Shown: in pieces, positions 30,694-64,000 of the stretch | How positions within the stretch are numbered: position 1 is the first letter of the stretch | How the letters are laid out: each line of letters opens with the position of its first letter | IMG/VR virus record: IMGVR_UViG_3300042539_001740 | DNA: 64,000 nucleotides | Direction: 5' to 3' (one strand) | Source of the DNA: a virus | Taxonomy: Duplodnaviria; Caudoviricetes | Notes under the pieces: model-generated | Database searches by the model: none | The model's input: only the letters and a program-made list of their open reading frames with translations | Told to the model about the DNA's origin: nothing | Position numbers and translations under genes: made by a program

Positions 30694-30921
30694 ATGAAAA
30701 TTCAAATTAAAATGATTGATGCTCTTGCTCTTAAATACGAGAGTGAGATAGCAGAGGCTGAGGCCACTTTATTGGTTTATTTCTCTAACTCAGTTGGTAT
30801 TGGTGAACATCCACAACATTTAGAAGAAATGGACAAGTATGTTGAGAAAATGGCTAATGCTAAAGACAAGTTGGAAACACTAAAAGAATTTGTAAAATAT
30901 AATTTAAACGATGGCAATTAA
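30694..30921 (+). CDS. Hypothetical protein (75 aa, helical)
   Basis: ORF coupled to recA by an 11-nt overlap. The start could be 30712. Confidence 0.7.
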   Translation: MKIQIKMIDALALKYESEIAEAEATLLVYFSNSVGIGEHPQHLEEMDKYVEKMANAKDKLETLKEFVKYNLNDGN

Positions 30922-33923: not shown

Positions 33924-33929
33924 AACACA

Positions 33930-34382: not shown

Positions 34383-34389
34383 TATTTAT
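34383..34389 (+). promoter_or_regulatory. TATTTAT box upstream of the helicase
   Basis: TATTTAT at 34383-34389, 20 nt before ATG 34410. Confidence 0.4.
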
Positions 34390-34409
34390 TCATACAACAA
34401 ATTTAAACT

Positions 34410-35789: not shown

Positions 35790-35791
35790 TT

Positions 35792-36742
35792 ATGACAGAA
35801 AAAATATTAACAGAAAATCCCAATCGTTTTGTGATTTTCCCAATCCAATACCACGACATTTGGGAATACTACAAACAACATCAGGCTGCGTTTTGGACAG
35901 CTGAAGAAGTTGATTTAAGTGGAGACATTAGGGATTGGCAGAACTTATCAGAGAATGAACAATACTTTGTTAAAAATGTATTATCATTCTTTGCAGCATC
36001 TGATGGGATTGTCAATGAGAACTTGGCTGAAAACTTTTATAGAGAAGTGCAATATCCTGAAGCAAAATTTTTCTATGGATTTCAATTGATGATGGAAAAT
36101 ATCCATTCACTAATGTATTCTTTGTTAATTGATACTTATATATCCAATCCTGAAGAAAAAGATGAATGTTTCAATGCAATCGATAGATTACCCGCAGTTC
36201 AGAAGAAAGCCAAGTGGGCATTAAATTGGATTGAAAAAGCATCCTTCCAAGAAAGATTGGTAGCTTTTGCTGCGGTAGAAGGTATATTCTTTTCAGGTTC
36301 ATTCTGTTCTATCTTTTGGTTGAAATCAAGAGGAATTATGCAAGGACTTTGTAATGCTAACTCCTTGATTTTCAAAGATGAAAACCTACATTGTGATTTC
36401 GCAATTCACTTATTGAACAACCATATTGAAAACAAACCAAGTGAAAAAAGAATAAAAGAAATATTACTTTCAGCATTGGAAATTGAAAAAGAGTTTATTA
36501 CAGAATCACTACCAGTATCTTTAATCGGTATGAACTCCAATCTTATGAAACAATATTTGGAGTTTGTTGTTGATGGTTTACTGGTTAAGTTGGGATGTAG
36601 TAAACATTTCAATGTAGAACAACCATTCAAGTTTATGGAACAAATTGCCGTTGAAACAAAAGGTAACTTCTTTGAATCAAGAACGGTTGAGTATCAAAAA
36701 GCAAAACTTAACGAAACAATTTCATTCACAGACGATTTTTAA
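35792..36742 (+). CDS. nrdB: Ribonucleotide reductase class Ia beta subunit
   Basis: [29 protein letters not shown] (radical Tyr), [21 protein letters not shown]. Confidence 0.95.
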
Positions 36743-36751
36743 AATTAAACT

Positions 36752-48793: not shown

Positions 48794-49631
48794 CAACAGA
48801 TATTATATAACATTACCAGTAACCTCACAAGAGATAAACATACCAATAGAAATTACAGAAGATTTCTTAGGAAGGTCTGATAGTATTGAACTTTATGAAG
48901 ATGAGGTTTTGGGTCAAGTTATTGGTATTCCATTTGATTTTGAAGTTGGTAGATATTCACATAATGAATATTCACCAACAAACACACAAACATCAGTTAA
49001 CTACGAATTCTACTTTTATAGTGGAAATCCTAACACTTTGAGTGCAACAACATGCCCTTTATCAAGTTCACCTGATTTAACACTTTGGGGGAATAATTAT
49101 TTGGCTGAAGGTTTCAATTCAAAAGAATTGTATTACTTTGCTAACTCTTTTGCAAATTCGTTTTTCAAACTTGATTTTTACGATAGACCTGACGAAAAAA
49201 ACCAAACTAATTATTTTACCGTAATAATACCAACTCAACAAGGTTTTACGACAACAGCGTCAATTTCACCTTACATAGCACCAGTACAAGTTAAAATACC
49301 AAAGTATAAATTGGATTTTGTTGGTGACAAAGAGGGTTTCTTTTTTTATTGGTTAAATGTACCACAATTTTTGACATTAGATACTTTTTATATGTCAATG
49401 AAATTTTTTGATGCAAAGTTGGGTGTTTTTGTAAGAATGATGAATGAACCTCAATGTCGATTACCAAACAAATACCAATTTGATTCAAGTATATATTTTT
49501 ATAATAAAGTGAAACTGAATTACGATACAAAAAAATATGAAATTTTTGATGGTAAAAATCATAATAATAGAATAGGTACAACGACAAATCCTATGAAGTG
49601 GTACGAATATGTTAATCCACCAAATTTATAA
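48786..49631 (+). CDS. Hypothetical structural protein (281 aa)
   Basis: Coupled ORF in the operon. Confidence 0.7.
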   Translation: MNNNRYYITLPVTSQEINIPIEITEDFLGRSDSIELYEDEVLGQVIGIPFDFEVGRYSHNEYSPTNTQTSVNYEFYFYSGNPNTLSATTCPLSSSPDLTLWGNNYLAEGFNSKELYYFANSFANSFFKLDFYDRPDEKNQTNYFTVIIPTQQGFTTTASISPYIAPVQVKIPKYKLDFVGDKEGFFFYWLNVPQFLTLDTFYMSMKFFDAKLGVFVRMMNEPQCRLPNKYQFDSSIYFYNKVKLNYDTKKYEIFDGKNHNNRIGTTTNPMKWYEYVNPPNL

Positions 49632-50809
49632 TGGAAAGTACAATTTATAACATAAGAATTTCACCTGAAAATATATCCAACGATTTATTTATTGTTCCGT
49701 ATTTCGGAGGATTTTCCCCACAAATTAGTGGAGACCCTTGTTGTGTTACGACTTTTTCAACAACACAAAAATATGAAGGATTTACGTATGTTTACTCCTC
49801 TATGACAAATGTTTTATCAGGCGGTACTAATGGGACTTCTTTATTAACAGGACTAACATTACCTATTTTATTTACACAATCAGCTGTAGATTTCGGATAT
49901 TATTCAGTATTTGATGGAATGATATTACAACAAGATGTAATGACTAATTTTGTCTTTACAGGCTCAACCATATTCCCAAACAATTTTACAGTAATTCTTT
50001 ACAATACATCAGAAATAGAACTAAAAAAATACTTGAGTTTTTCGAACTATCAAATTAGTTGGGGCGATGGTTCAACAACAACTATTGGACCTTATACTTC
50101 AACACCTTATACTCACACATATAGTTCTGCTGGAGAATATACAATAACTATGTCGGGTATGAGTCCTTGGGGTTATAACACAATTCAAAAAACACTAACA
50201 ATACCATTCTCTTCAACTACGATTAACAATCCAAATGGTACTGCGTATTTTACCCCACTTGGTGGAAGTTGGTCAGGAAGTGCTTTGAATTACAATTTTA
50301 TTTATAGTGGTGATTCAGATTGTGAAACAACAATAGAAGGATTCAATACATTTTTGGGTAACTCAGATTTAATCATATCAGGTTATAGTAAATCAGGACT
50401 TAATGATTTGGAAGTTTATGGTTCAATTAATAACCCTAATTTTTATTTAGGAAAATATAAAATCGGATGGCAAGTTACAGGTAGTTCCAATGTTGTTGGT
50501 ACTTTTTGGGGACCGAATCCAAATGGTTATACAGCATATACTATTAATGGTGTTGATTACTATGACTATCCTGATGGTACGACTTTATTCATCGTTAGTG
50601 GTGTGTCTGAGGTTGATTATGTTTGTTCTGCTATAACTAAAAATGAAGCACTACTCAATGTTATTGATGAACCTGCAATACAAACAAATGTTTTTGTTGA
50701 AAGGGGTAAGAATTCGGGTATTGAAACGATGATAAGATTGGGGGAGGTTGATAATCTTGGGGATTTAGATAATTATGGCTACGGATTTTTTAAAGTTACA
50801 AAGTTGTAA
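49631..50809 (+). CDS. Structural protein with a PKD (Ig-like) domain
   Basis: YQISWGDGSTTT...YTHTYSSAGEYTITMSG is the PKD signature. Confidence 0.7.
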   Translation: MESTIYNIRISPENISNDLFIVPYFGGFSPQISGDPCCVTTFSTTQKYEGFTYVYSSMTNVLSGGTNGTSLLTGLTLPILFTQSAVDFGYYSVFDGMILQQDVMTNFVFTGSTIFPNNFTVILYNTSEIELKKYLSFSNYQISWGDGSTTTIGPYTSTPYTHTYSSAGEYTITMSGMSPWGYNTIQKTLTIPFSSTTINNPNGTAYFTPLGGSWSGSALNYNFIYSGDSDCETTIEGFNTFLGNSDLIISGYSKSGLNDLEVYGSINNPNFYLGKYKIGWQVTGSSNVVGTFWGPNPNGYTAYTINGVDYYDYPDGTTLFIVSGVSEVDYVCSAITKNEALLNVIDEPAIQTNVFVERGKNSGIETMIRLGEVDNLGDLDNYGYGFFKVTKL

Positions 50810-50822
50810 CTTTAATATTTAT
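50790..50822 (+). promoter_or_regulatory. 11-bp hairpin (TTAAAGTTACA-AAGT-TGTAACTTTAA) abutting a TATTTAT box
   Basis: Arms at 50790-50800 and 50805-50815; box at 50816-50822. Confidence 0.55.
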
Positions 50823-50864
50823 TAATAGGTTAGTCAATATAAACTTAGAATAAAAGAATAATAA

Positions 50865-51773
50865 ATGGCACTCGCAAGTTATGGTACTATAAGACCATCA
50901 GATGTTTCACCAGAAGACGTTGAGATAATTTTACATTATACCCCATCAAGGGATGATACAGCTAATTTTGTATTGACTAAATTAGATTCAGTTTCATTAT
51001 TGAGACCATACTTTAACAATAGTAGTACTGGTGGTAATGCTAACATAGAAATATTAGGTGGTTTATATAATTTAAAATTACCTGCTGACCAATTTAATGC
51101 AATAGGAATTTACACAATTTATTTAAGACCAACTCAAATAAGAACTAAAATATTAGATTGTGGTGTGTTATCAGCATTACCTAATGTTAGAGGTATAATA
51201 ATTGATTTGAATCAAGTACCAAATCAATATAGAAACAAGTTTACAAATCAAGGTTTAGTTGGTTTCAGAATTGAATATCTTAACACAGATGGTTCAAAAA
51301 TACCTAACTTTTTTAGAGTAATTACATCTTCATTTTTCTGTGAACCTGTAATTCAAAATCTAACGAACACTTCGCAAAAAGCGATAAGATACAGATATAC
51401 TGATAGTAATAGTGGATTATTGTTTTGTACATTGTCACCATCATCAGCACCAACTAATAAACCGAATGCAATACCATACATTGGTCAACCTGACCAAGAT
51501 ATCATAATAACTAATACTTTCTTCAATCCAATAACCCTTGATATTGAAGTTGCTGAACACGATTTCTCAACGTTGGCTATTGCACTTTATGGTAATCAAA
51601 CCAAATCTATTGATGATGGTATCTACACTTACTACGATAGTCAAAATAACATATACAGACAATATAACCTATACGAAATCAGAGACCAGTTTAATGAGCT
51701 TCTATTTGAGGTAAGACAAGACAGAGGTAATAATATAGATTTCAGTAAAAACTTCACTAACATCACTTCGTAA
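50865..51773 (+). CDS. Hypothetical structural protein (302 aa)
   Basis: ORF with a TATTTAT box, in the baseplate operon. Confidence 0.7.
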   Translation: MALASYGTIRPSDVSPEDVEIILHYTPSRDDTANFVLTKLDSVSLLRPYFNNSSTGGNANIEILGGLYNLKLPADQFNAIGIYTIYLRPTQIRTKILDCGVLSALPNVRGIIIDLNQVPNQYRNKFTNQGLVGFRIEYLNTDGSKIPNFFRVITSSFFCEPVIQNLTNTSQKAIRYRYTDSNSGLLFCTLSPSSAPTNKPNAIPYIGQPDQDIIITNTFFNPITLDIEVAEHDFSTLAIALYGNQTKSIDDGIYTYYDSQNNIYRQYNLYEIRDQFNELLFEVRQDRGNNIDFSKNFTNITS

Positions 51774-54700
51774 TGGCTAAATTCACATGTCCTCCTCAAA
51801 CACCATCAGGTGCTGGTACTTTTGCAAATAATCTAGTTGGTTTACAATTAGTTACTGGTGGGGGTTTGACACAAGGAACATTTAATTTTACACTTTCGGC
51901 AAGTGAAAAAGTTAATAGAAACTTTTCCACTGGTACTTTTTCTAATCCAATCAGTTTGGATTCGATGGGTATCATAGATATTAATCAAGCCAAAGCTATT
52001 ATAGAAAATAATTACAAAGTTTATCCAAATTTTGATTTAACTCAAGTTACAAACTTTGTTTTATATGGGTCTATGGCCAAAAGGATGTCAGCTGCAGTAA
52101 CACAAGTTATTAGTTATTTTCCTGCAGCACTAGAATCAACGACATTAAGATTGGATTATTCCACTGGTGTAACAGCATTTAATGTTGTTTTCAGTTTACA
52201 ATATAATGAAACAACGTTTGAATTAGACCTTACCAAAATAAGAAATCCTTTTGGAATTGATTATACAACTAACTCAACTAGAAATCTGTCCCTCAGAGAG
52301 ATACCAGTATCAACATTGAGGAATATGACATTAGAATATGCCAAGTATTCCTTATATTATAATGAAATTGGGTATCAAGTTAAACGTATAGTACCAACAA
52401 ATTCTTTAACATCAGGTAATTTAAGTATTACTGTCGTTGGTAATCCATTTTCAGGTGAAACGAATGTTTTTGGAAATATTATAATAAGACCAAATGATAG
52501 TGAAGTTAATAAAGTTTTTAATGAAAATTTAGACGAAGTTGAAAACTTCTTATTAAATAGAACATCAACACCGATATATACAGCATCTTTCGTCATCCCT
52601 AAAGAAGCTGATGATGGAACGTATTACTCCGATAATGCTTCGGTAACTTGGCCAATATTGGGATTATGGAATTTGGACATTATCTCAAGCACTTTTGTTG
52701 ATTACTTAACAGTGTTGAACGACATCAGTGTATCATTTGATTCATATAGGACAAATCTTGTATCAAGATTTTTTACAACACCAGCATTTAAAGAATTTGA
52801 TACCATTGGTCAAAAAATGGATAAAGTTCTCCAAATCTATGGTAGAAGTTTTGATGAGGTAAATAAATATATCACAAGTTTATCTTATGTTACATCGGTT
52901 AACTACAATGTAAGAAATGACATCCCATCTCAATTATTAAGAAATTTAGCTCAAACTTTAGGTTGGCAGACGAATATTTCACCGATAACTAATACTGATT
53001 TTTTAAACTCTGTTTTTGGTCAAACAAATCAAGAAAAATCTATGTTCAGTGGGGTTCCAGTTGCTCAAACACCCGATGAATTGAATTATCAATTTTACAG
53101 AAATGTCTTATTGAATACCGCTTATTTATTCAAATCAAAAGGTACTAGAAAATCAATTGAAAATTTGTTAAGATTAATTGGTGCACCTGAAGCTTTGGTT
53201 GAATTTAATGAGTACGTTTACTTAGCCGACCAACGAATTAATATAAATAAGTTTAATAGTTATTATGCACAAATTTCAGGTGGTACTTTAGTAGAACAAA
53301 CACCAACACTAGAAAGTTCGAATGTCTTCACTTTGTTTGGCGTACAATATACTGGATTTACAACTACTGTAACAATAAAAGACGTTAATATAACAATTGA
53401 TGAATTCCCAATTGACGAATTTGGATTTCCCAAACCAATAACGGATAGTGAAGCTTATTTTTTTCAGATAGGTAGTGGATGGTTTGAACAAACCCCACAA
53501 CACAGAGCACCTGAACAAGTGAATTCAACTTTAAGTGTTTTCACAGGACTGAATCCCGATTATCAAACAAGTTTAAAACCATACACTTATGGTCAAGAAT
53601 ATTTAGACAGATTCAGAAAATTTCCATTTATTCAATTAGGCTATAATATTTCACCATCTGTTGATAATAACAAATCTTGGTACGATTCTGAAGTACTACT
53701 AAGAGTTAACTTAGATGGTAATATTAACGCAAGATACTTCGTTGCTGATGACAAATTAGTTTTAAATGTTAAGAATACTGAGATATTTTTGAATCCTGCA
53801 CAAGGACTTTTATATGATGTTTGGTATATGTCACGTTTGTACAATTATCCAATACCAAATCAAGGTATGAATTATGTCAATCCGAATGGGTGTTTTCCAA
53901 ACGCGGCAAGTTGCTACCCTGATAGAAATGGTGTTGATTGGACGATTATTAACCCACAACCAAAACAAAAAACCTTCTTCGAATTTGCTCAAACATTTTG
54001 GAAGAATACGATTAATGTAAGAAATAGACAATATTCTACTGATGGTAAAACTAGTGGTTACCCAACACTACAATCAATTTATTGGAAATATTTACAATCA
54101 TTACAAGATGTGAATATAGCAAACAATAATTTCACTTACCAAACTATGATAGAATACGTTAATGGTTTGGGTGATTATTGGATACGCTTAATTGAACAAA
54201 TGGTTCCAGCAACAACCATTTGGAATACTGGTGTCAAGTTAGAAAACTCAATTTTCCATAGACAGAAATTTCAATGGAAAAGACAAAGAGGTTGTCAGAT
54301 TATATTAGATACACCACCACCAACACCTGACCCTGTTGATTTATGTGAGTGTATAAGTATTACTGGTGCTTCAGTTGGAAGTAGTACATTAATAACAACA
54401 TTGAGTCCTAATGGTTATGTTAATGGCAAACAATCATTCTTGGGTTATGACCCTTGTTGTGGTTTAGTTAAAGATATAATTATTTCTTATAATTCGGGGT
54501 CAACTCGTTGGGAATATTATTATGATGGAACTCTTGTAGGTACTTTAAACTCAACATCTGATTGCCCAATTGGTAGTGTTTGGTCGAATACAAAAAATAA
54601 TGTTGGAACTATTTCATCAACTAATAGAACTATTTGCCCAAATCCTGCATCGTTTACACCATTGAGACCTAATCCTTGTAGACCATGTGAGTTGAATGAT

Positions 54701-55150
54701 AGTTTATATACCTACGATTGTCCTATACAAAACACAGAGTGTCCAAAATATCCTTGGTTAAGTGACCCAAAACTTGGTAGTTTTGGTAGTGTTTTAGGTA
54801 AATTGTTGAATGAATATCTTACTTCTATTGGTTATGACCCAAATAATTGTAGTTTGAATACGTTAACCACAGAGTGGTATGTGGATATTAGGATAGATGA
54901 TATTCAAGTTGTTTCTTACCCATTCTTCAATGGAATAGGATATAATTTAATACCATTAAGTTATCCTACAACTACGAATTGGGACACAGCATTAGTTACC
55001 GCTATGAATTTGATTAAACCACTAGGTTATGATTATTACTTTACTAGTGACGATACTATTGTAGTTTATAATCAAGTGTGTTCTGTGTCAGAAGCTGATA
55101 TTAACTTCAAGTTAAATATCGGAATAAACTTCTCAATTTATTGTGTATAA
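51773..55150 (+). CDS. Baseplate wedge protein with a P2 gpI / T4 gp7-like domain and a Cys-rich insertion
   Basis: LLRNLAQTLGW...AYLFKSKGTRKSIENLLRLIG is the gpI-like signature. Confidence 0.65.
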   Translation: MAKFTCPPQTPSGAGTFANNLVGLQLVTGGGLTQGTFNFTLSASEKVNRNFSTGTFSNPISLDSMGIIDINQAKAIIENNYKVYPNFDLTQVTNFVLYGSMAKRMSAAVTQVISYFPAALESTTLRLDYSTGVTAFNVVFSLQYNETTFELDLTKIRNPFGIDYTTNSTRNLSLREIPVSTLRNMTLEYAKYSLYYNEIGYQVKRIVPTNSLTSGNLSITVVGNPFSGETNVFGNIIIRPNDSEVNKVFNENLDEVENFLLNRTSTPIYTASFVIPKEADDGTYYSDNASVTWPILGLWNLDIISSTFVDYLTVLNDISVSFDSYRTNLVSRFFTTPAFKEFDTIGQKMDKVLQIYGRSFDEVNKYITSLSYVTSVNYNVRNDIPSQLLRNLAQTLGWQTNISPITNTDFLNSVFGQTNQEKSMFSGVPVAQTPDELNYQFYRNVLLNTAYLFKSKGTRKSIENLLRLIGAPEALVEFNEYVYLADQRININKFNSYYAQISGGTLVEQTPTLESSNVFTLFGVQYTGFTTTVTIKDVNITIDEFPIDEFGFPKPITDSEAYFFQIGSGWFEQTPQHRAPEQVNSTLSVFTGLNPDYQTSLKPYTYGQEYLDRFRKFPFIQLGYNISPSVDNNKSWYDSEVLLRVNLDGNINARYFVADDKLVLNVKNTEIFLNPAQGLLYDVWYMSRLYNYPIPNQGMNYVNPNGCFPNAASCYPDRNGVDWTIINPQPKQKTFFEFAQTFWKNTINVRNRQYSTDGKTSGYPTLQSIYWKYLQSLQDVNIANNNFTYQTMIEYVNGLGDYWIRLIEQMVPATTIWNTGVKLENSIFHRQKFQWKRQRGCQIILDTPPPTPDPVDLCECISITGASVGSSTLITTLSPNGYVNGKQSFLGYDPCCGLVKDIIISYNSGSTRWEYYYDGTLVGTLNSTSDCPIGSVWSNTKNNVGTISSTNRTICPNPASFTPLRPNPCRPCELNDSLYTYDCPIQNTECPKYPWLSDPKLGSFGSVLGKLLNEYLTSIGYDPNNCSLNTLTTEWYVDIRIDDIQVVSYPFFNGIGYNLIPLSYPTTTNWDTALVTAMNLIKPLGYDYYFTSDDTIVVYNQVCSVSEADINFKLNIGINFSIYCV

Positions 55151-57291
55151 TGTCTTGTTTTTTAGATGTAGTAGTAAATAGTATAACTGGTGATTGTAGT
55201 AATACGTCCTCAGGTGCGTTTAATATAAGTATCAATGGTAGTGCTCCTGATTTTACAATTTCTTGGATTGACCCTAGTTTTGGTACAATTCCACTTAGTG
55301 GTGCCACAGGGTACACAATTAGTGGACTTTCGGGTGGTTCTTATGTATTTAATGTTATTGATAGTTGTTCAGGAGGTAGTACAACATTTCCTGTAAGTGT
55401 CTATATTTCGACAGGGACTTGTGTTACCTTGACAGGTGTTCAGAATACAACTTGTAATCTGAGTAATGGTAGTATTACTGCTGATACAACAAATTATTAT
55501 AATTCACCTACTTTTAGTTTATACGAAATATCGAGTGGGTTTATTACTTCAGGACAAAGTTTCAACAATATCTTCACATTTAATTCTTTATCTGCAGGTA
55601 CATATTATGTTATTGCGGACGATGGTGGGGGATGTACTGGTAAATCTGAATCATGTATTGTTAAGTCATCAACTACGTTAGATTTTGGTGTATATGTCAT
55701 CAATGATGCGGGATGTGCAGTGGACTCAGGGGCAATCTACGTTACTGGTCAAACTGGAGTACCACCATACACATATTTGTGGTCAAATGGTCAAACAACC
55801 CCATCAATCACAGGATTAACACCTGGTAATTACAATGTGGTGGTGACAGATAGTGCTGGTTGTTCTAATAGTTTGGGTGTGGTTGTAAATGAAGTACCAC
55901 CAATTGGATTGGGAACATTTACAATTACAAATCCATCTTGTTACACTTCGGATGGAAGTGTAACAGTTGTTACAACTGGTGGTACTGCACCTTTTTATTA
56001 TTCAGGTTCTAACGGAACTGTAACAATTACTTTTGCTTCGAGTTATACATTTACTGGTGTTGCCGCAGGTAATTTCTCAGTTAGTGTAACTGATGCTGGT
56101 TTATGTAATTTTGTGGCATCCACAATTTTGTTGACTCCGAATTCATTTACTAACGTAACAGTTTCAACAACCAACTCACTATGTAATAATAATACAGGTG
56201 TTGTTTCAGTTTCTCTATTTGGTGGTTCCCCTCCTTATTCATATACTCTGATAGATTTCACAGGAAACTCAGCAACAACAGTTACTAATGCAACAAATGT
56301 AAACTTTAATGCCTTGGAATCGGGTAATTACACCTTACAAATTACTGATGGAGGACCTTGTGTTTTTACTCAAGCTGTGACAATAAATAATACAATTTTA
56401 TATACTTTAAGTTCAGTTGTATCAGGTACAACTTGTGGACAAAATAATGGTGTTGTTACTTTAAATATAAGTAGTGGAGGTACACCACCCTACATCTATC
56501 AGATGGATGGTGTTTTAGTTAACACAAGTTTGTCAGGTTATACATTTTCAGGATTAGCACCTGGTAATTACACAGCATCTGTAATTGATGCTAATTTATG
56601 TCAACAATTTTTACCAATATTAATACCAACCTCATCCTCGGTAAATTTTATATTAAACCCAACATCACCACTATCGGGAAATGATGGGATGATAGAAACT
56701 TTTATATTAGAAGGTGAACCTCCGTTTAATTTAATATGGAGTTCAAACGCACCAAGTGGACAAACTGGTTTAACAATAACTGGTCTCACTGCTGGTACGT
56801 ACAATCTAAGTGTTACAGATGATAATGGATGTACACAAGTAAGAAGTGTAACTTTATTCGGATACAATTTAATATCTTCATATCAAGTTTTAAATATTTG
56901 CAACGATAATTTTGTAAATTCGGGTCAATTAATCAAAAAGGGACTACAACAGATGTATCTTGAAGGTTTTCATGACTTAACATCAGGTGATACCAATTGT
57001 TTACTAAGTGCCGCAACTTTTGTTTGTGAAGTTAGTGTAAATGGGGTAACCAACTCAATTGGTTTTTATAATTCCACATCGTTAAACGATTTTCCAACTG
57101 ATAGTGTATATTTTAATGTTGTTGAAATATTATTATCACTATACCCCGAATTAGAAACAATAACTATTGATATATCGACAGGTGAGATATTAATTAGTTC
57201 ATTGTGTAATCCATCCATTGGGATGATTGATGCAACAATAATTGTGAGTGTAATAATTCTTTACAACATAAATTGTGTAAGTTGTGCATAA
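55150..57291 (+). CDS. SprB-repeat protein (about 7 repeats), putative tail fibre / virion adhesin
   Basis: Repeats of C...G.I.....GG.PPY.Y.W.....GL..G.Y.V.V.D..GC, e.g. GVPPYTYLWSNGQTTPSITGLTPGNYNVVVTDSAGC. ATG at 55150 overlaps the upstream TAA. Confidence 0.75.
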   Translation: MSCFLDVVVNSITGDCSNTSSGAFNISINGSAPDFTISWIDPSFGTIPLSGATGYTISGLSGGSYVFNVIDSCSGGSTTFPVSVYISTGTCVTLTGVQNTTCNLSNGSITADTTNYYNSPTFSLYEISSGFITSGQSFNNIFTFNSLSAGTYYVIADDGGGCTGKSESCIVKSSTTLDFGVYVINDAGCAVDSGAIYVTGQTGVPPYTYLWSNGQTTPSITGLTPGNYNVVVTDSAGCSNSLGVVVNEVPPIGLGTFTITNPSCYTSDGSVTVVTTGGTAPFYYSGSNGTVTITFASSYTFTGVAAGNFSVSVTDAGLCNFVASTILLTPNSFTNVTVSTTNSLCNNNTGVVSVSLFGGSPPYSYTLIDFTGNSATTVTNATNVNFNALESGNYTLQITDGGPCVFTQAVTINNTILYTLSSVVSGTTCGQNNGVVTLNISSGGTPPYIYQMDGVLVNTSLSGYTFSGLAPGNYTASVIDANLCQQFLPILIPTSSSVNFILNPTSPLSGNDGMIETFILEGEPPFNLIWSSNAPSGQTGLTITGLTAGTYNLSVTDDNGCTQVRSVTLFGYNLISSYQVLNICNDNFVNSGQLIKKGLQQMYLEGFHDLTSGDTNCLLSAATFVCEVSVNGVTNSIGFYNSTSLNDFPTDSVYFNVVEILLSLYPELETITIDISTGEILISSLCNPSIGMIDATIIVSVIILYNINCVSCA

Positions 57292-57292
57292 T

Positions 57293-57325
57293 AAAAAACC
57301 CCACCTAAAAAGTGGGGTTTAATTT
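57293..57325. terminator. Bidirectional terminator between the convergent operons
   Basis: AAACCCCAC-CTAAAAA-GTGGGGTTT flanked by an A-tract and a T-rich tract. Confidence 0.8.
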
Positions 57326-57924
57326 TACCATAAATTTTCTTGTTTCATATATCCTAACACACAACAATAAGCATCACTCATATCAAAATTCTCTTTCTTA
57401 AGAGTATTGTTTTTTGTGTAACCCCAATTTATTTGAGGTTCTCTTTTGGCTACTTGTTCCCAAATAATTTGTTTTTTGTCACAATCCTTTGGTAATCCAC
57501 CAAACAAAACAAACTTCCCTTTACCATTATCTTTCACTAACCATGGGAAAGCGTTTTTTCTTGAGTTGTATGTTGATATGTATTCAGGAACAATACCTAA
57601 AACATCATATATCTCTTTGGAAATAAGAGTATTATATCTCATTAAAGTTTGTATAGTATAAACATTGTTACTATTTAAAAGTGGCTCTTCGATAACAACT
57701 TTTTTGATGTTTAATTCATCATACCCCTCTAATTTAGTTTTGAAAATTTCGGTCTTAAGAAATAATTCCTTCATTTTATTTTCTTCTTTAGGTTTGGTTA
57801 CTGGTGAGATATGAGTTAATTCCAATAATTCCTTACTTTCTATGTCAAACAATGCCCAACCAATTGTTTTCGTAGAAATATCTAACCCCAAAACCTTTGG
57901 GGATTGTTTCATTTTATCATTCAT
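57325..57924 (-). CDS. RuvC-like Holliday junction resolvase
   Basis: RNase H-fold catalytic pattern: VLGLDIST..IGWA, VVIEEP, DMSDAY. Confidence 0.8.
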   Translation of the reverse strand: MNDKMKQSPKVLGLDISTKTIGWALFDIESKELLELTHISPVTKPKEENKMKELFLKTEIFKTKLEGYDELNIKKVVIEEPLLNSNNVYTIQTLMRYNTLISKEIYDVLGIVPEYISTYNSRKNAFPWLVKDNGKGKFVLFGGLPKDCDKKQIIWEQVAKREPQINWGYTKNNTLKKENFDMSDAYCCVLGYMKQENLW

Positions 57925-57927
57925 AAA

Positions 57928-60348
57928 TTAAATATCTAATTTGATTACAAACTGTTGAATCCCCGTTCTCGGATATGGAGATTGTAGCTTTGAAACAATC
58001 ATAAGATTTTTGTCTGAATCGTAAAGACCAATTTCAGTTACGAATGGTTGGACTGAAGTATTCCACGATGGATTTGAGGAGTATTGGAATTCTGATTGAC
58101 CTAATACTATCTGATACCTCATTTCATAAATTGTGGCTTGAATGTCAGTTTCTATATTACCATAAAAATAATATTCATCACCAAAATTTAATTGAGTTCC
58201 TGAAAAACCTGCCGTAGTTATATCAATATAATCACTTAAGTCATAAAGTGGTGCATTATCATATAAGTCCTGAGTTATAACAAACGTATTACCTGTTAAA
58301 CCTGATTGTGTTAAATACCCATTATTACTTGTACCACTAAGTTGGAAATTATAGTCAATTATTCTCCATTGTGATGGTTCTGGTCTACCATTACCCTCAA
58401 CCTTTTGACAAATAATTTCAAATGAATCAGCAATAAAACCTGACGTAATATCACAACCTACAGAACATATACTTGGATTAGATGATAAACAATTAAATTC
58501 ATCACCAAATCTTACACTAACATTTTGAGAATTCAAAGGATTACAAGTTATGTTAGGTCCTTGTATTACTTGATAATAATTAGAATGTAAAGAATTAGTA
58601 TAGGCTGAAGAGTTTGATAATCGATATGTAACGTGTAAATATTCAGTTTCGCCAGTCAGAATTCCCTCAACAGATTCGTTATCCAAACCACAAATATTTG
58701 GTGTAATTAAAGCAACCTTTGGCGCTGGTAATGTCCAGTTTCTATTGGCTTTATATGACATTGCGGCAATAATCTCTTCATCATCAATAATGATTAGTTT
58801 GTGGTCAGGAAATACCTTACCAATTCTGTTTGGTATTCCCGCAATCGGTGTTGTATTTGGGTTTGGATTAGTATCCCATAGGTGATAATATCTTATACCT
58901 GGATTATTCATATCTTGGTTTTGATTTGACTCCAAGTAATGAACAGTAAATAATGGTATAATTAAATCATCAAAACCAGGAGGGTCAACATAAAAAGTTT
59001 GTCCATAACAACATTCAGGGTTTTTATGCCACATTAACCACGGAATGTGTAATTTGAAATTCCTTGCTTCTCCTATTGTATCATCAGGTTCAGTAATATC
59101 GTGAGGTTCCAAGGCGAATTTTTCACCATAGAAAAAATCAATCGTATTATTAGTATAATGAATAATAGCAATGGCCTTTTGTTCTTCAGGTGTAACTACA
59201 ACCTTTTCATCAAAAGAGTTATAATAATAAGTTGAATCAGTATCGGTTTGTCCACTACTTGAAGCGTAACCAAAATATTCTTTAGACCCCAAATAATCAA
59301 TAGAACCAAATTTAGTATAATCTTTGTGTGTTGAGGAATTTATACCTGCTGGACTTTCTGACCAAGGAATATTCATATTCCAAATTTTAACATCAAATTG
59401 GTCAGTATAACAAACCGATTCAAAATTGATAACATCATATGGGAAGTGTTGAGATGGTGTTACACTATCATAAATCTCAGTCATTCCTGATGGATATACA
59501 ATTACACGAGCATAACAATCACCACTTAAATATGTAAAATCAGGTGTTGACCTATCCAAAGTTATATTATCCAAACAAACATCAACAATTCGATATGTTA
59601 AAATCGTATAACAACTTGACATATCCACAACACAAGTTGCAGTATAACTCGGTAAACACGGGCCACAATTAGTCACAGGACAAGTTGTGGTTGTAGTTGT
59701 TGTTGGAGGTGATGGTGGACTACAAGCGTCAGTTGTTGTTGTTGTCGTTACTGGTAAGGTAGTTGTAGTAGTTGTTGCAGTGAAACAATTACAGTCATTA
59801 ACACCATTACCATCATAAATTATCGTTATAAAATCACCAATTTGATAGTTCCTAACAAAATCATTGTTACATGTAATTGCCGAAACCACAATCAAATTTG
59901 AACCATTCAAACCACTCATTTGTATTACATAGTTAGATGTTAGTGCGTAGTCACCTGTGGTTATTGCACTCCACTCTATGTTTGAACCTGATGTTGTACC
60001 TAAGAAAAACCCCCTTGGTGATGCTGTATTATACACTGGACTTACAATCGATTGCATAAATGGGATTCCATATGTATTTCCGTTGTTACCATCCACGTAG
60101 TAAGGGTATTTAATGTTTTCCTTATTTGATTGAGGAACACCTGCCGAATTTTGAGCATTGAAACTTGGCTCTAATACTCTACTATTATATTGGTTATAAC
60201 TTGTTTGAGGAATAGCATTATACGAAACTTCACTATCACCAATTTGAAAATAACTTATATTAAAATTACCTTGAGAAATTTTTTGTCTCCCAGTATCGGT
60301 AATCCTTGTGTTTATTAAACCTGCTGTGTTTTTTAAAATATATCCCAT
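57928..60348 (-). CDS. Tail-fibre attachment protein (P2 gpH N-terminal / DUF3751-like domain split by a large insertion with poly-Thr linkers)
   Basis: N-terminal ITDTGRQKISQG..ISYFQIGDSE and C-terminal VTEIGLYDSDKNLMIVSKL match the two ends of the gpH-type collar domain. Confidence 0.55.
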   Translation of the reverse strand: MGYILKNTAGLINTRITDTGRQKISQGNFNISYFQIGDSEVSYNAIPQTSYNQYNSRVLEPSFNAQNSAGVPQSNKENIKYPYYVDGNNGNTYGIPFMQSIVSPVYNTASPRGFFLGTTSGSNIEWSAITTGDYALTSNYVIQMSGLNGSNLIVVSAITCNNDFVRNYQIGDFITIIYDGNGVNDCNCFTATTTTTTLPVTTTTTTDACSPPSPPTTTTTTTCPVTNCGPCLPSYTATCVVDMSSCYTILTYRIVDVCLDNITLDRSTPDFTYLSGDCYARVIVYPSGMTEIYDSVTPSQHFPYDVINFESVCYTDQFDVKIWNMNIPWSESPAGINSSTHKDYTKFGSIDYLGSKEYFGYASSSGQTDTDSTYYYNSFDEKVVVTPEEQKAIAIIHYTNNTIDFFYGEKFALEPHDITEPDDTIGEARNFKLHIPWLMWHKNPECCYGQTFYVDPPGFDDLIIPLFTVHYLESNQNQDMNNPGIRYYHLWDTNPNPNTTPIAGIPNRIGKVFPDHKLIIIDDEEIIAAMSYKANRNWTLPAPKVALITPNICGLDNESVEGILTGETEYLHVTYRLSNSSAYTNSLHSNYYQVIQGPNITCNPLNSQNVSVRFGDEFNCLSSNPSICSVGCDITSGFIADSFEIICQKVEGNGRPEPSQWRIIDYNFQLSGTSNNGYLTQSGLTGNTFVITQDLYDNAPLYDLSDYIDITTAGFSGTQLNFGDEYYFYGNIETDIQATIYEMRYQIVLGQSEFQYSSNPSWNTSVQPFVTEIGLYDSDKNLMIVSKLQSPYPRTGIQQFVIKLDI
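59683..59781 (-). repeat. Low-complexity ACN-codon tracts encoding TATTTTTTLPVTTTTTTDACSPPSPPTTTTTTTC
   Basis: Imperfect GTT/GTA trinucleotide runs on the + strand. Confidence 0.85.
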
Positions 60349-60352
60349 AAAG

Positions 60353-60359
60353 ATAAATA
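60353..60359 (-). promoter_or_regulatory. TATTTAT box
   Basis: 4 nt upstream of ATG 60348 on the minus strand. Confidence 0.55.
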
Positions 60360-60372
60360 TCGAAAATTGATT

Positions 60373-61098
60373 TTATGTGACGATAATGTTACAACAATAA
60401 CATCCTGATATAGAAACATTACTTAAAGTGTAATTTTCAACACTTTGACCTAAATAACAAGCGACATCTTGGTTTTTAGTTGTAGTTGTATATGTTGTTA
60501 ATATTAAAGTATCTGAATTTGTATAAGTGAGATTGTTCCATCCCTCAGTGTACGAAGTGATGTAAACATTTTGATTTTGACAACCTGGTGTTGGATTATA
60601 AGTTGTACTCAAAGTCGAACTTGAGTATGAAATAGATTGTGTGACACTATTTTTAACCAAGTCACTCGTTGACGTTGTTGTAGAAGTACCTGAGAATGGA
60701 GAAGATTTTGAAGTATTTAAATGTACCAAATTAAATGTTATAGTTACACCACTTGGTAAACTTGGAAACACTGAAATAGTTGTATCGTATTTTTTTGTTA
60801 ATGTTGTATTGTTATTAACTATTGTTGTTGACGAAGTATTAATTGTAACGTTGTATGTTATTGAATTATTCGATGTGTTTAGAATAACAGAATTTGTTGA
60901 TGTTTCACCCGACACGTCTTTTACAATAACAGAGTATTGACCAGGACATAAATTACTAAATAATGGTGTATTAAAATAGGTTAAACCATTATTAATTGAG
61001 TAGGAATATGGTGGTGTTCCATTGTAACCTTGAATTGCAAAAGAACCATCACATCCACAAATTGTATCATTTATATTAACAGTTGAAGTTAAAATCAT
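60373..61098 (-). CDS. Thr/Ser-rich protein with one N-terminal SprB-like repeat
   Basis: CGCDGSFAIQGYNGTPPYSYSINNG..FSNLCPGQYSVIVKD. Confidence 0.65.
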   Translation of the reverse strand: MILTSTVNINDTICGCDGSFAIQGYNGTPPYSYSINNGLTYFNTPLFSNLCPGQYSVIVKDVSGETSTNSVILNTSNNSITYNVTINTSSTTIVNNNTTLTKKYDTTISVFPSLPSGVTITFNLVHLNTSKSSPFSGTSTTTSTSDLVKNSVTQSISYSSSTLSTTYNPTPGCQNQNVYITSYTEGWNNLTYTNSDTLILTTYTTTTKNQDVACYLGQSVENYTLSNVSISGCYCCNIIVT

Positions 61099-61101
61099 AT
61101 A

Positions 61102-63297
61102 TTAGCTTGTTGAAGTAAATGTGTATGTACTTGTTTTAGTACCCCCAGCAACTAAATTGGCTGTTAATGTAACTAAATAAGTATGTGTATTACCAATCGG
61201 AGGACACGGGCCTTCCCATCCTTGAGTATTTGAAGCACCTGGGTCACCTGTGGTTGGATTTATTGTCACACCACCAGGCCAAGGTATTGATGAACTAACC
61301 TGAGTGGTTGTATTTGGTATATTTGTTACATCCCAATGAATATATCCCGGATTGTCTAAATCTTCACAATAAATTTCAAAACTACTAATGTCTGAACTTG
61401 TTAAACCCCCCAACAAATACCATTTAAACCAAGGAGTTTCATTAGAACCACCACAAGCCCCTGAAAATTTAAATGTTGTTGGTATGTCACTATCATCTAA
61501 CGCCCACCAAGCATTAATTGTTAAAGATAAAAAGTCAGAACAAGCACCTATTGATGTTATAGTTTGTTGTTGAGGACTTGGAGGATTAACAGACATTGTC
61601 CATGCTCCTGAAGTTGGTGAACTTGGATATCCTTTGAATATAGTCCAAGTAGATGTACCTAAAGCTGTATTTATAATACTACTTGTTGATGCCGATAACG
61701 ACCATACTCCCGAAGTACCAACAGATGGGTTAAAATATACAATTTCATTACCAGAATTTGATATCCAAGATGTTTGGCCATTTATATAAGTGTTATATTG
61801 GAAAGTAATTTGAGTTGTGGTTGGAGTAGGTGTACCGCCAGTCCTTTTGGTTGTCGTAATTGACATACAGAAAATATTTTCTAAATAGTTTGGAACTGGA
61901 GGTAAAGTTGTTGTTGATGTTGTAGTCGTTGTAAAACCAGGTACTGTACAAGTTGTTGTGAAAGTATAGTCACCATAATAGTCACTAACAACGGCAGTAT
62001 AACTACCAGTAGATAGACCATTTATTGTCTTACCACCTATTAGTGTAGCACCATTAGGAAAAGTCCATTCTATTGTGTATGGAGGAACACCACCAACGAT
62101 ACTTAATGTTATTGAACCATTTGAACTATCAGGGTTTCCAGTAATATTTGTTACATTACAGATTACGTTTAATGGTTGTATAGTGAGTACGTTACAATCA
62201 TTTACTGGTATATAACCCGAGTTTATATATGACCTAGTTGTTGTAGTTGTCGTTGAAGTGGTAGGTGTTACACCAGTACAAGGTGTTCTTAAAACTTGTG
62301 AACAAAAAGGTGAACCCGAACATGTTACTAATGTAAATCCACTCGAACAAGTTAACCCAGTAACACCTGAATTATCAAAAGTAGTACCCGTTAAATCTCT
62401 TGTGGTGAATACGGTTACTAAGGTTAATGCTGATTGGGAAGTAATTGCACTCAAAGACGAAACACTACCTGAATAAATTTCAGCACCGAAACCACCAGTA
62501 GCTCCTGTACTTGAATTTAGACCTTCCATTTGAATATAATTCGGTCCTGCTGGTAAAGTTATTGGGAAAACTGACCAAGTTGAAAAAGTTTGACCATGTG
62601 TTCTATAAGCTGAAAATGAATTGTACTGATTACCGAAAGTAAAACCACTTGTATTAGCTTCAACTAATAACACACCATTTAATTTAAATCTGTAAAAATC
62701 GTCAGCACCCATTCCCAAATAATAGGTTTGAGATGTTGGATTATTGAAACAAGCAGTGAAACCAATCCATTCATTTGCTGGAGAAAAAGGTGATGTTGTT
62801 GTTGGCCAAACACCTGAGTAATTTAATCTACCTGGTGAATTGGGTAGAAAAGTTGTTGATTTATTACCCCATACTGTATTAGAATTAGCACATGGCCAAA
62901 TTCTAGGTCCGTGAGTTGTTGCACTTAATGAACAACTTTCTAATAAACCACTTGGAGAAACAATACTTTGACCAGCACCCGGGCCTCCCAAAATATAATT
63001 TAAAGTTCTATCCTTCAAACTTTTGGTAGTATCAGAATCTATAAAAAATGATGTGTTGAATAAGGGTGTCCCATTTTTTGTTTGAGAACCAGTTGTAATT
63101 CCTGTCAGTATAATTGGAAACGTCAAATTAGTTATGTCTTCATAAAAAATTGTCCCCATATATCCGTTGGTAGAAAACTGACCTGCTTTCAAAACAACAA
63201 GAGTTGAGGCAGAACCACTGGTTGATGCGGTTACTTCTCTTATACACTCAGAATTATCAGGTGCTGCGGTATAACCAGATGGACAAAAACAACTCAT
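61102..63297 (-). CDS. Modular putative fibre / receptor-binding protein: lectin/PA14-like domain, poly-Thr linkers, SprB repeat and C-terminal PEBP (YbhB/YbcL) domain
   Basis: YYLGMGADDFYRFKLNG..W...PITLPAGPN.I..EG.N (lectin-like); GSITLSIVGGVPPYTIEW (SprB); GSNETP...W..EDLDNP..IHWDVTNIP..GWEGPCPP.GNTHTY (PEBP). Confidence 0.7.
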   Translation of the reverse strand: MSCFCPSGYTAAPDNSECIREVTASTSGSASTLVVLKAGQFSTNGYMGTIFYEDITNLTFPIILTGITTGSQTKNGTPLFNTSFFIDSDTTKSLKDRTLNYILGGPGAGQSIVSPSGLLESCSLSATTHGPRIWPCANSNTVWGNKSTTFLPNSPGRLNYSGVWPTTTSPFSPANEWIGFTACFNNPTSQTYYLGMGADDFYRFKLNGVLLVEANTSGFTFGNQYNSFSAYRTHGQTFSTWSVFPITLPAGPNYIQMEGLNSSTGATGGFGAEIYSGSVSSLSAITSQSALTLVTVFTTRDLTGTTFDNSGVTGLTCSSGFTLVTCSGSPFCSQVLRTPCTGVTPTTSTTTTTTRSYINSGYIPVNDCNVLTIQPLNVICNVTNITGNPDSSNGSITLSIVGGVPPYTIEWTFPNGATLIGGKTINGLSTGSYTAVVSDYYGDYTFTTTCTVPGFTTTTTSTTTLPPVPNYLENIFCMSITTTKRTGGTPTPTTTQITFQYNTYINGQTSWISNSGNEIVYFNPSVGTSGVWSLSASTSSIINTALGTSTWTIFKGYPSSPTSGAWTMSVNPPSPQQQTITSIGACSDFLSLTINAWWALDDSDIPTTFKFSGACGGSNETPWFKWYLLGGLTSSDISSFEIYCEDLDNPGYIHWDVTNIPNTTTQVSSSIPWPGGVTINPTTGDPGASNTQGWEGPCPPIGNTHTYLVTLTANLVAGGTKTSTYTFTSTS

Positions 63298-63312
63298 TAA
63301 TTAGATTTTAAA

Positions 63313-63320
63313 TATAAATA
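63313..63320 (-). promoter_or_regulatory. TATTTATA box
   Basis: 15 nt upstream of ATG 63297 on the minus strand. Confidence 0.6.
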
Positions 63321-63323
63321 GAT

Positions 63324-64000
63324 TTATTGATTGTTTTGAACAATCTTTTTCATTATTTCGATGTATTTTATTGTTGAACTATTTTTCTCCACGTAATCAA
63401 AAAAATTAATGTTGGTTTTCAATTTATCTAAAGGACTTACATTAATAAATTCACCTTTATAAAATTTTGAAGATTTCAAGTCATCGGTAACACCTGCCAT
63501 ATGTAGTATTGAATGTTGATTATAAATCTCCATTGAATCTGTTGCCCACGAAAAACTTAATTCATCTGATATTTTAGTTTCATAATTATGTAACCATAAA
63601 TTCCACAATAAAGACCACATTTCTGCTGTCCAAAATTGTATTTCACCAGGACTTATCGGAAATCTTTTTTGGTAACTCAACATTTGGTCATAAAGTGGTG
63701 TACAATCTTCATAAATTTTTTTCCATAGTTCTTTTGTCGTGTTTTTCAACAAATACTGACCACCACCTGAGTTAAGTTGGTTTTCTTTTATAGTATTAAC
63801 ATCAATTCCTATAATATCACTCATTTCTCTCAAAAGTTGACCTTTTTGTGAGTTTGGATGTCTTCCTTCATATCTTTTACAACAATCCATAATGTAGTTG
63901 TAACCAATATAACCGATTGTATCTGATAAATAATTTATTTCATCTTTGAGTAATGAATTGAAATCAGGTAATTTTCTGAATACAATATCAGCATCGTGTA
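63324..64000 (-). CDS. GT-A-fold glycosyltransferase-like protein (SERGT1/HPAT-like), 5'-truncated by the window edge
   Basis: The frame stays open beyond the track start at 63890 to the window end, adding HDADIVFRKLPDFNSLLKDEINYLSDTIGYIGYNYI. It contains a DxD motif (DAD), WTAEMW and ILHMAG. Confidence 0.65.
   Translation of the reverse strand, partial: HDADIVFRKLPDFNSLLKDEINYLSDTIGYIGYNYIMDCCKRYEGRHPNSQKGQLLREMSDIIGIDVNTIKENQLNSGGGQYLLKNTTKELWKKIYEDCTPLYDQMLSYQKRFPISPGEIQFWTAEMWSLLWNLWLHNYETKISDELSFSWATDSMEIYNQHSILHMAGVTDDLKSSKFYKGEFINVSPLDKLKTNINFFDYVEKNSSTIKYIEIMKKIVQNNQ

Follow-up and report, generated by a model that had tools for sequence, protein, structure and literature searches.

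What is the acceptor of the putative glycosyltransferase (GT) encoded at the edge of IMG/VR virus record IMGVR_UViG_3300042539_001740? The window, which is the whole 64,000-nt stretch of DNA that was analysed, corresponds to G000:C1:25525-89524, minus strand, of a 194,498-bp IMG/VR viral contig from a large, uncultured phage (CheckV completeness ~66%, GC content ~31%). The closest relatives of this phage reach 270-322 kb, and it was therefore classed as a jumbo phage. The last open reading frame (ORF) of the window, 63324..64000 on the minus strand, is open at the window edge; completed from the parent contig, it encodes a 325-aa protein, P0001. A preliminary description, made from the sequence of the window alone, had likened this ORF to the plant/algal enzymes SERGT1 (GT96) and HPAT (GT95) and had proposed that the phage glycosylates Thr-rich, mucin- or extensin-like linkers of its own fibres. 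Given the fold of P0001, its conserved catalytic residues, the position of its gene and the coupling of that gene to runs of pure Thr, we consider it likely that P0001 acts in late infection as a cytoplasmic, metal-dependent GT-A enzyme and O-glycosylates virion proteins on linkers or tails made of homopolymeric Thr.

The motifs singled out in the preliminary description (HDADIVFR, GYIGY, GGGQYLL, LWKKIYED, FWTAEMWS, KISDELS and ILHMAG) all lie within the edge ORF. P0001 had no Pfam match (the best hits, SwrA and MpsC, were noise at E > 0.05), returned nothing from NCBIfam and, in sequence and profile searches, nothing meaningful from the PDB. It belongs to phrog_4417, a family of 'unknown function' (E 6.5e-70; residues 6-320 of the protein against profile positions 3-291 of 293). 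When 54 family members spanning 29-91% identity were aligned, D105, H267 and ten other residues were invariant and D103 was kept in at least 90% of the sequences. The two aspartates form a DxD motif (H102-D103-A104-D105 in HDADIVF) that follows strand 98-101 and is located at the extreme edge of the window; H267 lies within ILHMAG. The AlphaFold2 (AF2) model of P0001, built with the 54-sequence alignment, had a predicted local distance difference test score (pLDDT) of 97.4 and a predicted template modelling score (pTM) of 0.93. By its modelled fold, one Rossmann-like alpha/beta/alpha domain around a central mixed beta-sheet, and its DxD motif, P0001 is a single-domain GT-A fold glycosyltransferase.

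Foldseek comparison with solved structures in the PDB yielded at least 322 matching chains at E <= 0.001. The best 50 listed were all glycosyltransferases, nearly all of them GT-A enzymes of the GT8/GT24/GT6 type; the highest-scoring were UGGT (7zll), glycogenin (3t7n), WbbM and LARGE1, all with a TM-score (TMq) of ~0.45, and no GT95 or GT96 structure was among the PDB matches listed. Among Swiss-Prot models, the first-ranked match was the Arabidopsis peptidyl-serine alpha-galactosyltransferase SERGT1 (Q8VYF9; E 9e-11, TMq 0.63), and the next eight were HPAT/RDN/PLENTY/NOD3 entries (TMq 0.58-0.64). Galactinol synthases, GT8 enzymes, UGGT, glycogenin and lipopolysaccharide (LPS) glycosyltransferases followed at TMq 0.42-0.47, so that GT95 and GT96 rank above the LPS, GT8 and UGGT folds. 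The ranking of AFDB clusters agreed with this, 'HPAT-like domain' clusters coming next after the family's own members. Among viral models the sole higher scorers were uncharacterised phage ORFs (for example LP65 Orf49, TM 0.71), and BFVD matches to giant-virus glycosyltransferases reached a TMq of ~0.47 at most.

The proposed resemblance to SERGT1 and HPAT thus stands for structure and falls at the level of sequence. PF23452 (HPAT) did not match P0001 even at E <= 10 and was not found in a six-frame search of the contig; none of the 54 aligned family members matched any Pfam model at E <= 0.01, and PF23741 (DUF7164) matched neither the contig nor these members. The only trace of PF23452 was in 10% of the members of one neighbouring ESM-Atlas viral cluster. 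With PF23452 silent on P0001, the contig and the relatives, we rejected sequence-level membership of GT95/GT96; the likeness is structural only.

P0001 starts with MEDLIFVSAQPD, and its first beta-strand occupies residues 5-11. We saw no hydrophobic N-terminal segment in the sequence or the model, no dedicated transmembrane predictor being used. Because the first strand begins at residue 5 and there is no membrane anchor, P0001 would be cytoplasmic and not Golgi-resident.

The family is large, with at least 1293 clusters at 90% identity, at least 836 representatives at 50% identity (E <= 0.001) and at least 593 IMG/VR stretches. Homologs with 32-37% identity occur in 77 cultured phage records, mostly of Lactobacillus, Enterococcus, Staphylococcus and Lactococcus phages, with one Chryseobacterium phage. 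None of these bears a functional annotation; one record, phiFL2B gp49, is labelled 'major tail protein'. Some family members are fused to PF11397, to O-FucT (PF10250) or to GT6, and one to a methyltransferase. Fusion to other transferase domains places the P0001-type domain in multi-step glycan assembly, and such natural fusions could reveal the order of the pathway. The fusion proteins P0152, P0167, P0170, P0183 and P0261 are 779-1369 aa long, and their partner domains also include an F5/8 type C lectin-like domain.

If the family acts on Thr runs, such runs should accompany it elsewhere. We examined four cultured phages that have a homolog and are distant from one another, and in every one of them structural proteins encoded nearby contain T7-T10 runs. 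In Enterococcus phage VPE25, where the homolog lies between head genes and head-tail adaptors, the major tail protein has a T10 run and a head-module protein has PETTTTTT. The homolog of Staphylococcus phage SA2 follows the gene for the major tail protein, which contains STTTTTTTTP, and the protease/scaffold protein contains PTTTTTTT. Lactobacillus phage Iacchus encodes its homolog beside a GDPD protein gene, with PTTTTTTTAS in the second ORF upstream. In Chryseobacterium phage MA9V-3 the homolog follows a phrog_1645-like gene, as it does on the P0001 contig, and the first and third ORFs upstream contain TTTTTT runs. In the small Firmicutes phages the Thr run is often the sole unusual feature of the tail protein. 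SA2 also has a 90-aa ORF (L005:6652-6924), 44% Thr, which overlaps, in a different frame, the 3' end of the gene for the major tail protein; through programmed frameshifting, this ORF could extend some of the tail-tube subunits by a long Thr tail.

We also asked the question in reverse, using IMG/VR contigs that had been picked solely for nine consecutive ACN codons, with GCNx9 and AAYx9 as controls. The contigs searched covered 54 of 80 ACNx9 loci, 41 of 50 GCNx9 loci and 14 of 44 AAYx9 loci. The GT was present in 7 of the 54 ACNx9 contigs (E <= 1e-91, 34-36% identity to P0001) and in none of the 41 GCNx9 or 14 AAYx9 contigs (7/54 vs 0/55 controls; Fisher one-sided p = 0.006). Some ACNx9 matches are (AAC)n repeats read in another frame, so 7/54 is conservative. 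In six of the seven contigs the GT gene directly abuts, on the same strand, an ORF with a T9-T13 run. The poly-Thr ORFs encode major tail or tail-tube proteins with long C-terminal extensions, an Ig-domain 'virion structural protein' and 1660-aa PKD-domain proteins.

The genes that follow P0001 on the jumbo-phage contig carry tracts of the same kind. The features of the locus, in window coordinates unless stated otherwise, are:

63324..64000, minus strand: C-terminal 224 codons of the GT-A glycosyltransferase P0001; the ORF runs ~300 nt past the window edge.
L001:1200-2174, or G000:C1:25224-26201: full P0001 ORF, 325 aa, read from the parent contig.
61102..63297, minus strand: 731-aa multidomain protein, 26 nt downstream of the GT.
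62236..62268, minus strand: linker TPTTSTTTTTT, residues 344-354 of the 731-aa protein (tract scan).
61906..61932, minus strand: linker TTTTTSTTT, then LPP, residues 456-464 of the 731-aa protein (tract scan).
61813..61833, minus strand: TPTPTTT tract, residues 489-495 of the 731-aa protein (tract scan).
60373..61098, minus strand: 241-aa Thr/Ser-rich protein (18.7% T) with a SprB-like N-terminal repeat.
60664-60687, minus strand: weak tract TSTTTSTS in the 241-aa protein.
57928..60348, minus strand: 806-aa protein, conserved across the jumbo-phage group, with two linker sites.
59683..59775, minus strand: site-1 linker TTTTTTLPVTTTTTTDACSPPSPPTTTTTTT, residues 192-222 of the 806-aa protein, with ACNx6 matches at C1:29750-29841.
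57325..57924, minus strand: RuvC-like Holliday-junction resolvase (phrog_159, E 3.8e-8).

The 806-aa protein was used to examine the coupling among close relatives. We picked 80 loci by orthology to this protein (54-91% identity), independently of the GT. The GT was present at 58 loci and absent from 22, of which 19 have enough upstream DNA to judge. A tract was scored as a run of T>=4, a criterion that does not score (PT)n. Poly-Thr was found in 54 of the 58 GT-carrying loci and in none of the 19 GT-less loci (GT+/polyT+ 54, GT+/polyT- 4, GT-/polyT+ 0, GT-/polyT- 19), a naive Fisher p of 1.7e-14 that is inflated by shared ancestry. On the 19 GT-less contigs the GT was found nowhere else, and one of these contigs, 322 kb long, has a completeness rating of 100%. 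A tree of the orthologs with the Thr runs removed implies at least four changes of GT state; the GT-less loci form five separate groups, all five without poly-Thr, and every independent pair that differs in poly-Thr state is concordant. ACNx6 matches had a density of 3.4 per 100 kb in two GT-carrying genomes vs 0.41 per 100 kb in three GT-less genomes. In gene maps of the relatives, the neighbours of the GT carry T6-T11 runs, one of them being divergently transcribed, and the runs of GT-less genomes are T5 or shorter. The co-occurrence of the GT with Thr-rich genes that the preliminary description had proposed as a test thus holds in distant cultured phages, in a controlled reverse test and in presence/absence among close relatives.

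The anatomy of the 806-aa protein narrows this coupling. Site 1 (residues 183-245; window 59614-59802) is a Cys-punctuated (PT)n/PTPTPS linker in orthologs with and without the GT, and pure Thr runs occur in it in the P0001 phage, where there are three of 6, 6 and 7 residues bracketed by Cys, and in four relatives. Site 2 (~residues 622-632) is empty in the P0001 phage; most GT-carrying relatives have one to four tandem TTTTTT-x-x-P-x modules there, and the insertion was present in 17 of 21 GT-carrying orthologs aligned vs none of 11 GT-less ones. Since (PT)n linkers persist in GT-less relatives, Pro/Thr linkers are independent of P0001 and the link is confined to pure poly-Thr. What remains of the proposed mucin/extensin-like linkers is accordingly the pure Thr runs, which are coupled to the GT; the Pro/Thr and SPP motifs are not. 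The Cys pattern of site 1 (C-x-C, (PT)n, C, ...) is conserved in all orthologs and suggests disulfide- or metal-stapled linker modules in a presumably extracellular virion protein.

The Thr strings noted in the preliminary description do occur in co-oriented genes directly downstream of the GT, in the 731-aa and 806-aa proteins, with the weak TSTTTSTS in the 241-aa protein. In composition-matched shuffles, the longest T run of the 806-aa protein (T7) was reached in 2 of 20000 and that of the 731-aa protein (T6) in 280 of 20000; the tract of the 241-aa protein was within chance (3939 of 20000 shuffles reached its longest T run). Within the runs, Thr is encoded by a mixture of ACA, ACT, ACG and ACC, which shows that they did not arise as slippage repeats. 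Tracts were found in 6 of the ~182 ORFs on the 194-kb contig, and three of the six are the three genes directly downstream of the GT. Thr makes up 10-19% of the downstream proteins, and Thr/Ser-rich sequence is abundant outside the pure runs.

The 731-aa protein is the candidate substrate nearest the GT gene. It has a Cys-rich N-terminal region, a SprB-like Ig domain between poly-Thr linkers and a C-terminal PEBP/YbhB-like domain at residues 614-713 (PF01161 (PBP), E 1e-11; TIGR00481, E 1.5e-9, under its curated cut-off); a PA14 match was weak (E 0.038, 14.2 bits vs the 24-bit Pfam cut-off). A PEBP/YbhB-type (Raf-kinase-inhibitor-like) domain, here at window 61102-61500, is unusual for the distal end of a phage appendage. 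Domains homologous to the 241-aa protein sit in proteins of variable size at the same position in relatives. IMG/VR contains at least 495 stretches related to the 806-aa protein. The label 'fibre genes' used in the preliminary description is an inference: the genes are co-oriented and Thr-rich, and none of the 731-aa, 241-aa and 806-aa proteins had a PHROG or Pfam structural match. Hints of a virion context are the SprB-like Ig repeats, the sub-threshold PA14 match and the phrog_1645 'virion structural protein' gene immediately upstream of the GT.

SprB repeats recur nearby. A 716-aa protein on the opposite strand (window 55141-57291, plus strand) is built of them (PF13573, E 5.6e-21); this Ig-like repeat is that of Bacteroidota gliding-motility adhesins. 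'GG.PPY' repeats like those of the 716-aa protein are also seen in three other proteins, two of them the 731-aa and 241-aa proteins and the third a 417-aa protein encoded in a second Thr-rich fibre block outside the window. The SprB repeats and the Chryseobacterium phage homolog together hint at a Bacteroidota host.

P0001 lies in a packed, co-oriented run with intergenic gaps of 3-29 nt, in which the gene order on the contig is phrog_1645 'virion structural protein' (404 aa), P0001, the 731-aa, 241-aa and 806-aa proteins and the RuvC-like resolvase. In the gene map of the relatives, the GT is one accessory gene, inserted on its own upstream of a block that is conserved and consists of a gene like that for the 241-aa protein, the 806-aa gene and the RuvC-like gene. 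The first of these is conserved upstream of the 806-aa gene, and the RuvC-like gene is kept directly after the 806-aa gene in all relatives examined. The resolvase closes the co-oriented block and is outside the proposed glycosylation system.

How might such a system work? P0001 would be made late in infection together with the structural genes around it, would take a host- or phage-made nucleoside-diphosphate (NDP)-sugar and would attach the sugar to Thr hydroxyls in T5-T10 runs. These runs would be exposed inter-domain linkers or C-terminal tails of virion proteins, in the P0001 phage the 731-aa and 806-aa proteins encoded directly downstream, and a poly-Thr run would then serve as a portable acceptor tag. 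Further transferases, whose genes lie in other parts of the contig, could then build on this first sugar. The phage might benefit from a stiff, extended linker, from protease resistance, or from shielding or adhesion.

Several observations weigh against this mechanism. The literature searched yielded neither biochemical nor proteomic evidence on any family member. The lack of PHROG and Pfam structural matches leaves the virion location of the three downstream proteins putative, and the AF2 model of the 806-aa protein was poor (pLDDT 49.8), with both linker sites in low-confidence segments between beta-rich domains. In four of the GT-carrying relatives the 806-aa ortholog is devoid of poly-Thr. 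Shared ancestry makes the loci less independent than the naive Fisher test assumes, and there are only three or four phylogenetically independent GT+/GT- pairs, too few for a sign test to become significant. The distance between the GT and the 806-aa gene is 0.8-3.3 kb, and part of the correlation could therefore stem from a recombining block in which both are inherited together; the occurrence of poly-Thr at two alternative sites, in GT lineages only, makes block co-inheritance alone not an easy explanation. Lastly, the genome encodes a second candidate initiating enzyme, a PF11397 protein, which could be the real Thr transferase.

The coupling links the presence of a gene to the presence of a tract and is silent on the atom that is modified. 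The virion proteins could therefore be glycosylated at other Ser or Thr residues, in (PT)n or in folded domains, with poly-Thr acting as docking tags or as spacers tolerated only beside glycosylated residues; with 10-19% Thr, there is plentiful Thr/Ser-rich sequence beyond the pure runs to accommodate this. We consider it improbable, however, because the (PT)n linkers and the general Thr-richness are unchanged in GT-less relatives and only the homopolymeric run varies with the GT, and because that run often has no other unusual feature beside it in the tail proteins of the small Firmicutes phages.

Modification of Thr runs also has to be weighed against a non-protein acceptor, that is, a cell-wall polysaccharide, teichoic acid, LPS, capsule or phage DNA, in which case the link to poly-Thr would reflect shared hypervariable fibre/receptor-binding cassettes. 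The role usually given to phage GTs is DNA modification or serotype conversion (PMC12619734, PMC10202952), the next-best folds after GT95/96 include LPS glycosyltransferases and WbbM, a large glycan-synthesis island on the contig could serve a polysaccharide, and the GT is physically near fibre genes. The coupling, however, recurs in siphoviruses, a Harbinvirus (Herelleviridae) and jumbo phages, with Firmicutes and Bacteroidota-type hosts, and the poly-Thr of those phages is on head, scaffold and tail-tube proteins, which are core genes and not cassettes. In addition, poly-Thr arose at two sites of a conserved gene in GT lineages only, the best structural relatives are protein O-glycosyltransferases, and the GT gene is found in late structural operons and not among DNA-metabolism genes. 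A non-protein acceptor is thus unlikely.

Among the proteins of the second Thr-rich fibre block is a 1032-aa fibre that bears an endosialidase-chaperone domain. Directly after this block, ~6-11 kb beyond the window start (G000:C1:95982-100487), there are four co-oriented genes that encode the PF11397 'GlcNAc' glycosyltransferase (E 1e-70), a GT25 protein, an unannotated 292-aa ORF and an HtrL/YibB protein. CAZy GT60, the usual home of PF11397 proteins, includes polypeptide Thr/Hyp alpha-GlcNAc transferases (Hyp, hydroxyproline). The GT60-like PF11397 protein might thus start O-glycans on Thr and P0001 add a second sugar, and fusions of P0001-family proteins to PF11397 do suggest a shared pathway. 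Yet PF11397 was present in five of five relatives tested, four of which have neither the P0001 family nor poly-Thr, so it does not track poly-Thr; and in the 13-17-kb stretches of the small Firmicutes phages the only other annotated gene linked to glycans or teichoic acid was the GDPD gene beside the Iacchus homolog, these genomes not having been scanned for other transferases. We regard an elongating role for P0001 as very unlikely. Being kept also where P0001 is absent, PF11397 is a core gene like the (PT)n linkers, and P0001 is an accessory gene that tracks poly-Thr. PF11397 may pair with the ubiquitous (PT)n linkers, and the two enzymes might then divide the work between them, an attractive but speculative idea. 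P0001 might also have a GT fold but no catalysis and serve poly-Thr proteins as a structural component or chaperone, as the 'major tail protein' label of phiFL2B gp49 would allow; this is extremely unlikely, since the DxD, the C-terminal His and about ten other residues are kept down to 29% identity, a pattern expected of an active enzyme, and the fusion partners are other transferases.

The contig could supply further steps of glycan assembly. The glycan island (G000:C1:123479-145201) encodes a 633-aa dual-GT2 protein, more GT2s, three GT11 fucosyltransferase-like genes and a GT17, together with two DegT aminotransferases, an RmlD/epimerase-GT2 fusion, a UDP-glucose/GDP-mannose dehydrogenase and an epimerase/dehydratase-sugar C-methyltransferase fusion; DUF5672, DUF3431, NAD synthase and PhoH are also found there. 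In total, about a dozen genes on the contig have transferase-family matches. A Hyp acceptor, an idea that came from an SPPSPP motif and the analogy to HPAT, was not supported: a search of the 194-kb contig (~66% complete) for a 2OG-Fe(II) prolyl hydroxylase (PF13640) found none, which makes such an acceptor unlikely.

Taken jointly, these observations allow a wider and more tentative reading, which we think possible but would not favour. Poly-Thr would be a portable, encoded glycosylation tag that phages graft onto exposed linkers and C-termini of capsid, tail-tube and fibre proteins, to be read by dedicated cytoplasmic phrog_4417 transferases that share ancestry with the plant/algal extensin-initiating enzymes. 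The P0001 phage would have two orthogonal systems, a core GT60-like enzyme for (PT)n and an accessory GT95/96-like enzyme for poly-Thr, and with about a dozen transferases and a phage NDP-sugar pathway feeding them these would produce a mucin-like virion coat.

Elsewhere in the window, large ORFs at 41625-55150 have no PHROG or Pfam structural annotation. Replication and nucleotide-metabolism genes occupy 30911-39169 on the plus strand and comprise three tandem ~335-aa ORFs (the first a RecA/UvsX-like paralog by PHROG), a DnaB-like helicase and the large subunit of ribonucleotide reductase. They are flanked by a 2450-aa tail protein on one side and, on the other, by the block of giant ORFs that lack annotation, so that structural and replication modules are interleaved in this phage.

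Phage virion O-glycosylation as such is known; its proposed performance by a different, plant-like family of enzymes acting on a homopolymeric tag, across phages of many hosts, would be new. The literature searched contained no description of the phrog_4417 family or of poly-Thr tags in phages. To our knowledge, phage virion glycosylation has been demonstrated for some mycobacteriophages only. Many phages probably sugar-coat their own particles by a P0001-type route. If this is correct, sugar-coated virions are common (at least 836 clusters at 50% identity, at least 593 IMG/VR stretches and 77 cultured phages), and the carriers include Enterococcus, Staphylococcus, Lactobacillus and Lactococcus phages that are used in therapy or are relevant to dairy fermentation. 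Phage stability, antibody recognition, pharmacokinetics in therapy, mucus adherence and host-range determinants would all be affected. The tag and its transferase would also form a simple two-part tool for cytoplasmic protein O-glycosylation in bacteria, and the family would provide a soluble microbial relative for structural work on plant GT95/GT96, families for which no solved structure is known to us. The hypothesis is directly testable with phages already in culture.

Among known systems, virion glycosylation in mycobacteriophages is one close parallel. Genome papers put phage GTs down to DNA or host-surface modification and, for virions, cite just the mycobacteriophage work (PMC12619734, PMC10202952). 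As summarised in PMC12619734, the virion glycans of Che8, Corndog and Myrna decorate capsid and tail-tube subunits at their C-terminal ends (Freeman et al. 2023, Cell Host Microbe). As in the P0001 family, phage GT genes are found among the structural genes, and the location of the glycans in that summary is of the same kind as the poly-Thr tails of the VPE25 and SA2 major tail proteins. The hosts differ, being Actinobacteria in one case and Firmicutes and Bacteroidota-type bacteria in the other, and a homopolymeric Thr tag with presence/absence coupling to a GT is not part of the description given in the available portion of PMC12619734.

The retaining GT-A enzymes of the GT8/GT24 type (glycogenin, UGGT, galactinol synthase, the LPS alpha-glycosyltransferases RfaI/RfaJ) appear to share with P0001 a metal site of the DxD and a C-terminal His, the His completing an Mn2+ site in the GT8-like clan, and glycogenin and UGGT also act on protein or glycoprotein acceptors. 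Their structural similarity to P0001 is, however, clearly lower than that of GT95/96, P0001 has no Pfam GT8 match, and they are not associated with low-complexity acceptors. Giant viruses encode their own cytoplasmic transferases and NDP-sugar pathways for virion proteins, as in the chlorovirus capsid and the mimivirus fibril glycans. The P0001 contig resembles them in carrying about a dozen transferase-family genes as well as DegT, dehydratase/epimerase, UDP-sugar dehydrogenase and sugar C-methyltransferase domains, although giant viruses infect eukaryotes and use other transferase families and acceptor rules.

The best matches of P0001 among characterised proteins are the plant/algal enzymes SERGT1/SGT1 (GT96) and HPAT1-3, RDN1/2, PLENTY and NOD3 (GT95), which share its GT-A fold with an identity of just 12-15% in structural alignments. 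SERGT1 and HPAT have a type II membrane anchor and work in the secretory pathway, whereas P0001 has no N-terminal anchor; their acceptor is Ser or Hyp, and that of P0001 is presumably Thr. In plants, SERGT1 and HPAT add the initial sugar to Ser or Hyp within extended segments of low complexity in cell-wall proteins (extensins, arabinogalactan proteins (AGPs) and CLE peptides). By analogy, the poly-Thr linkers of the P0001 phage may be the counterpart of these plant acceptor segments.

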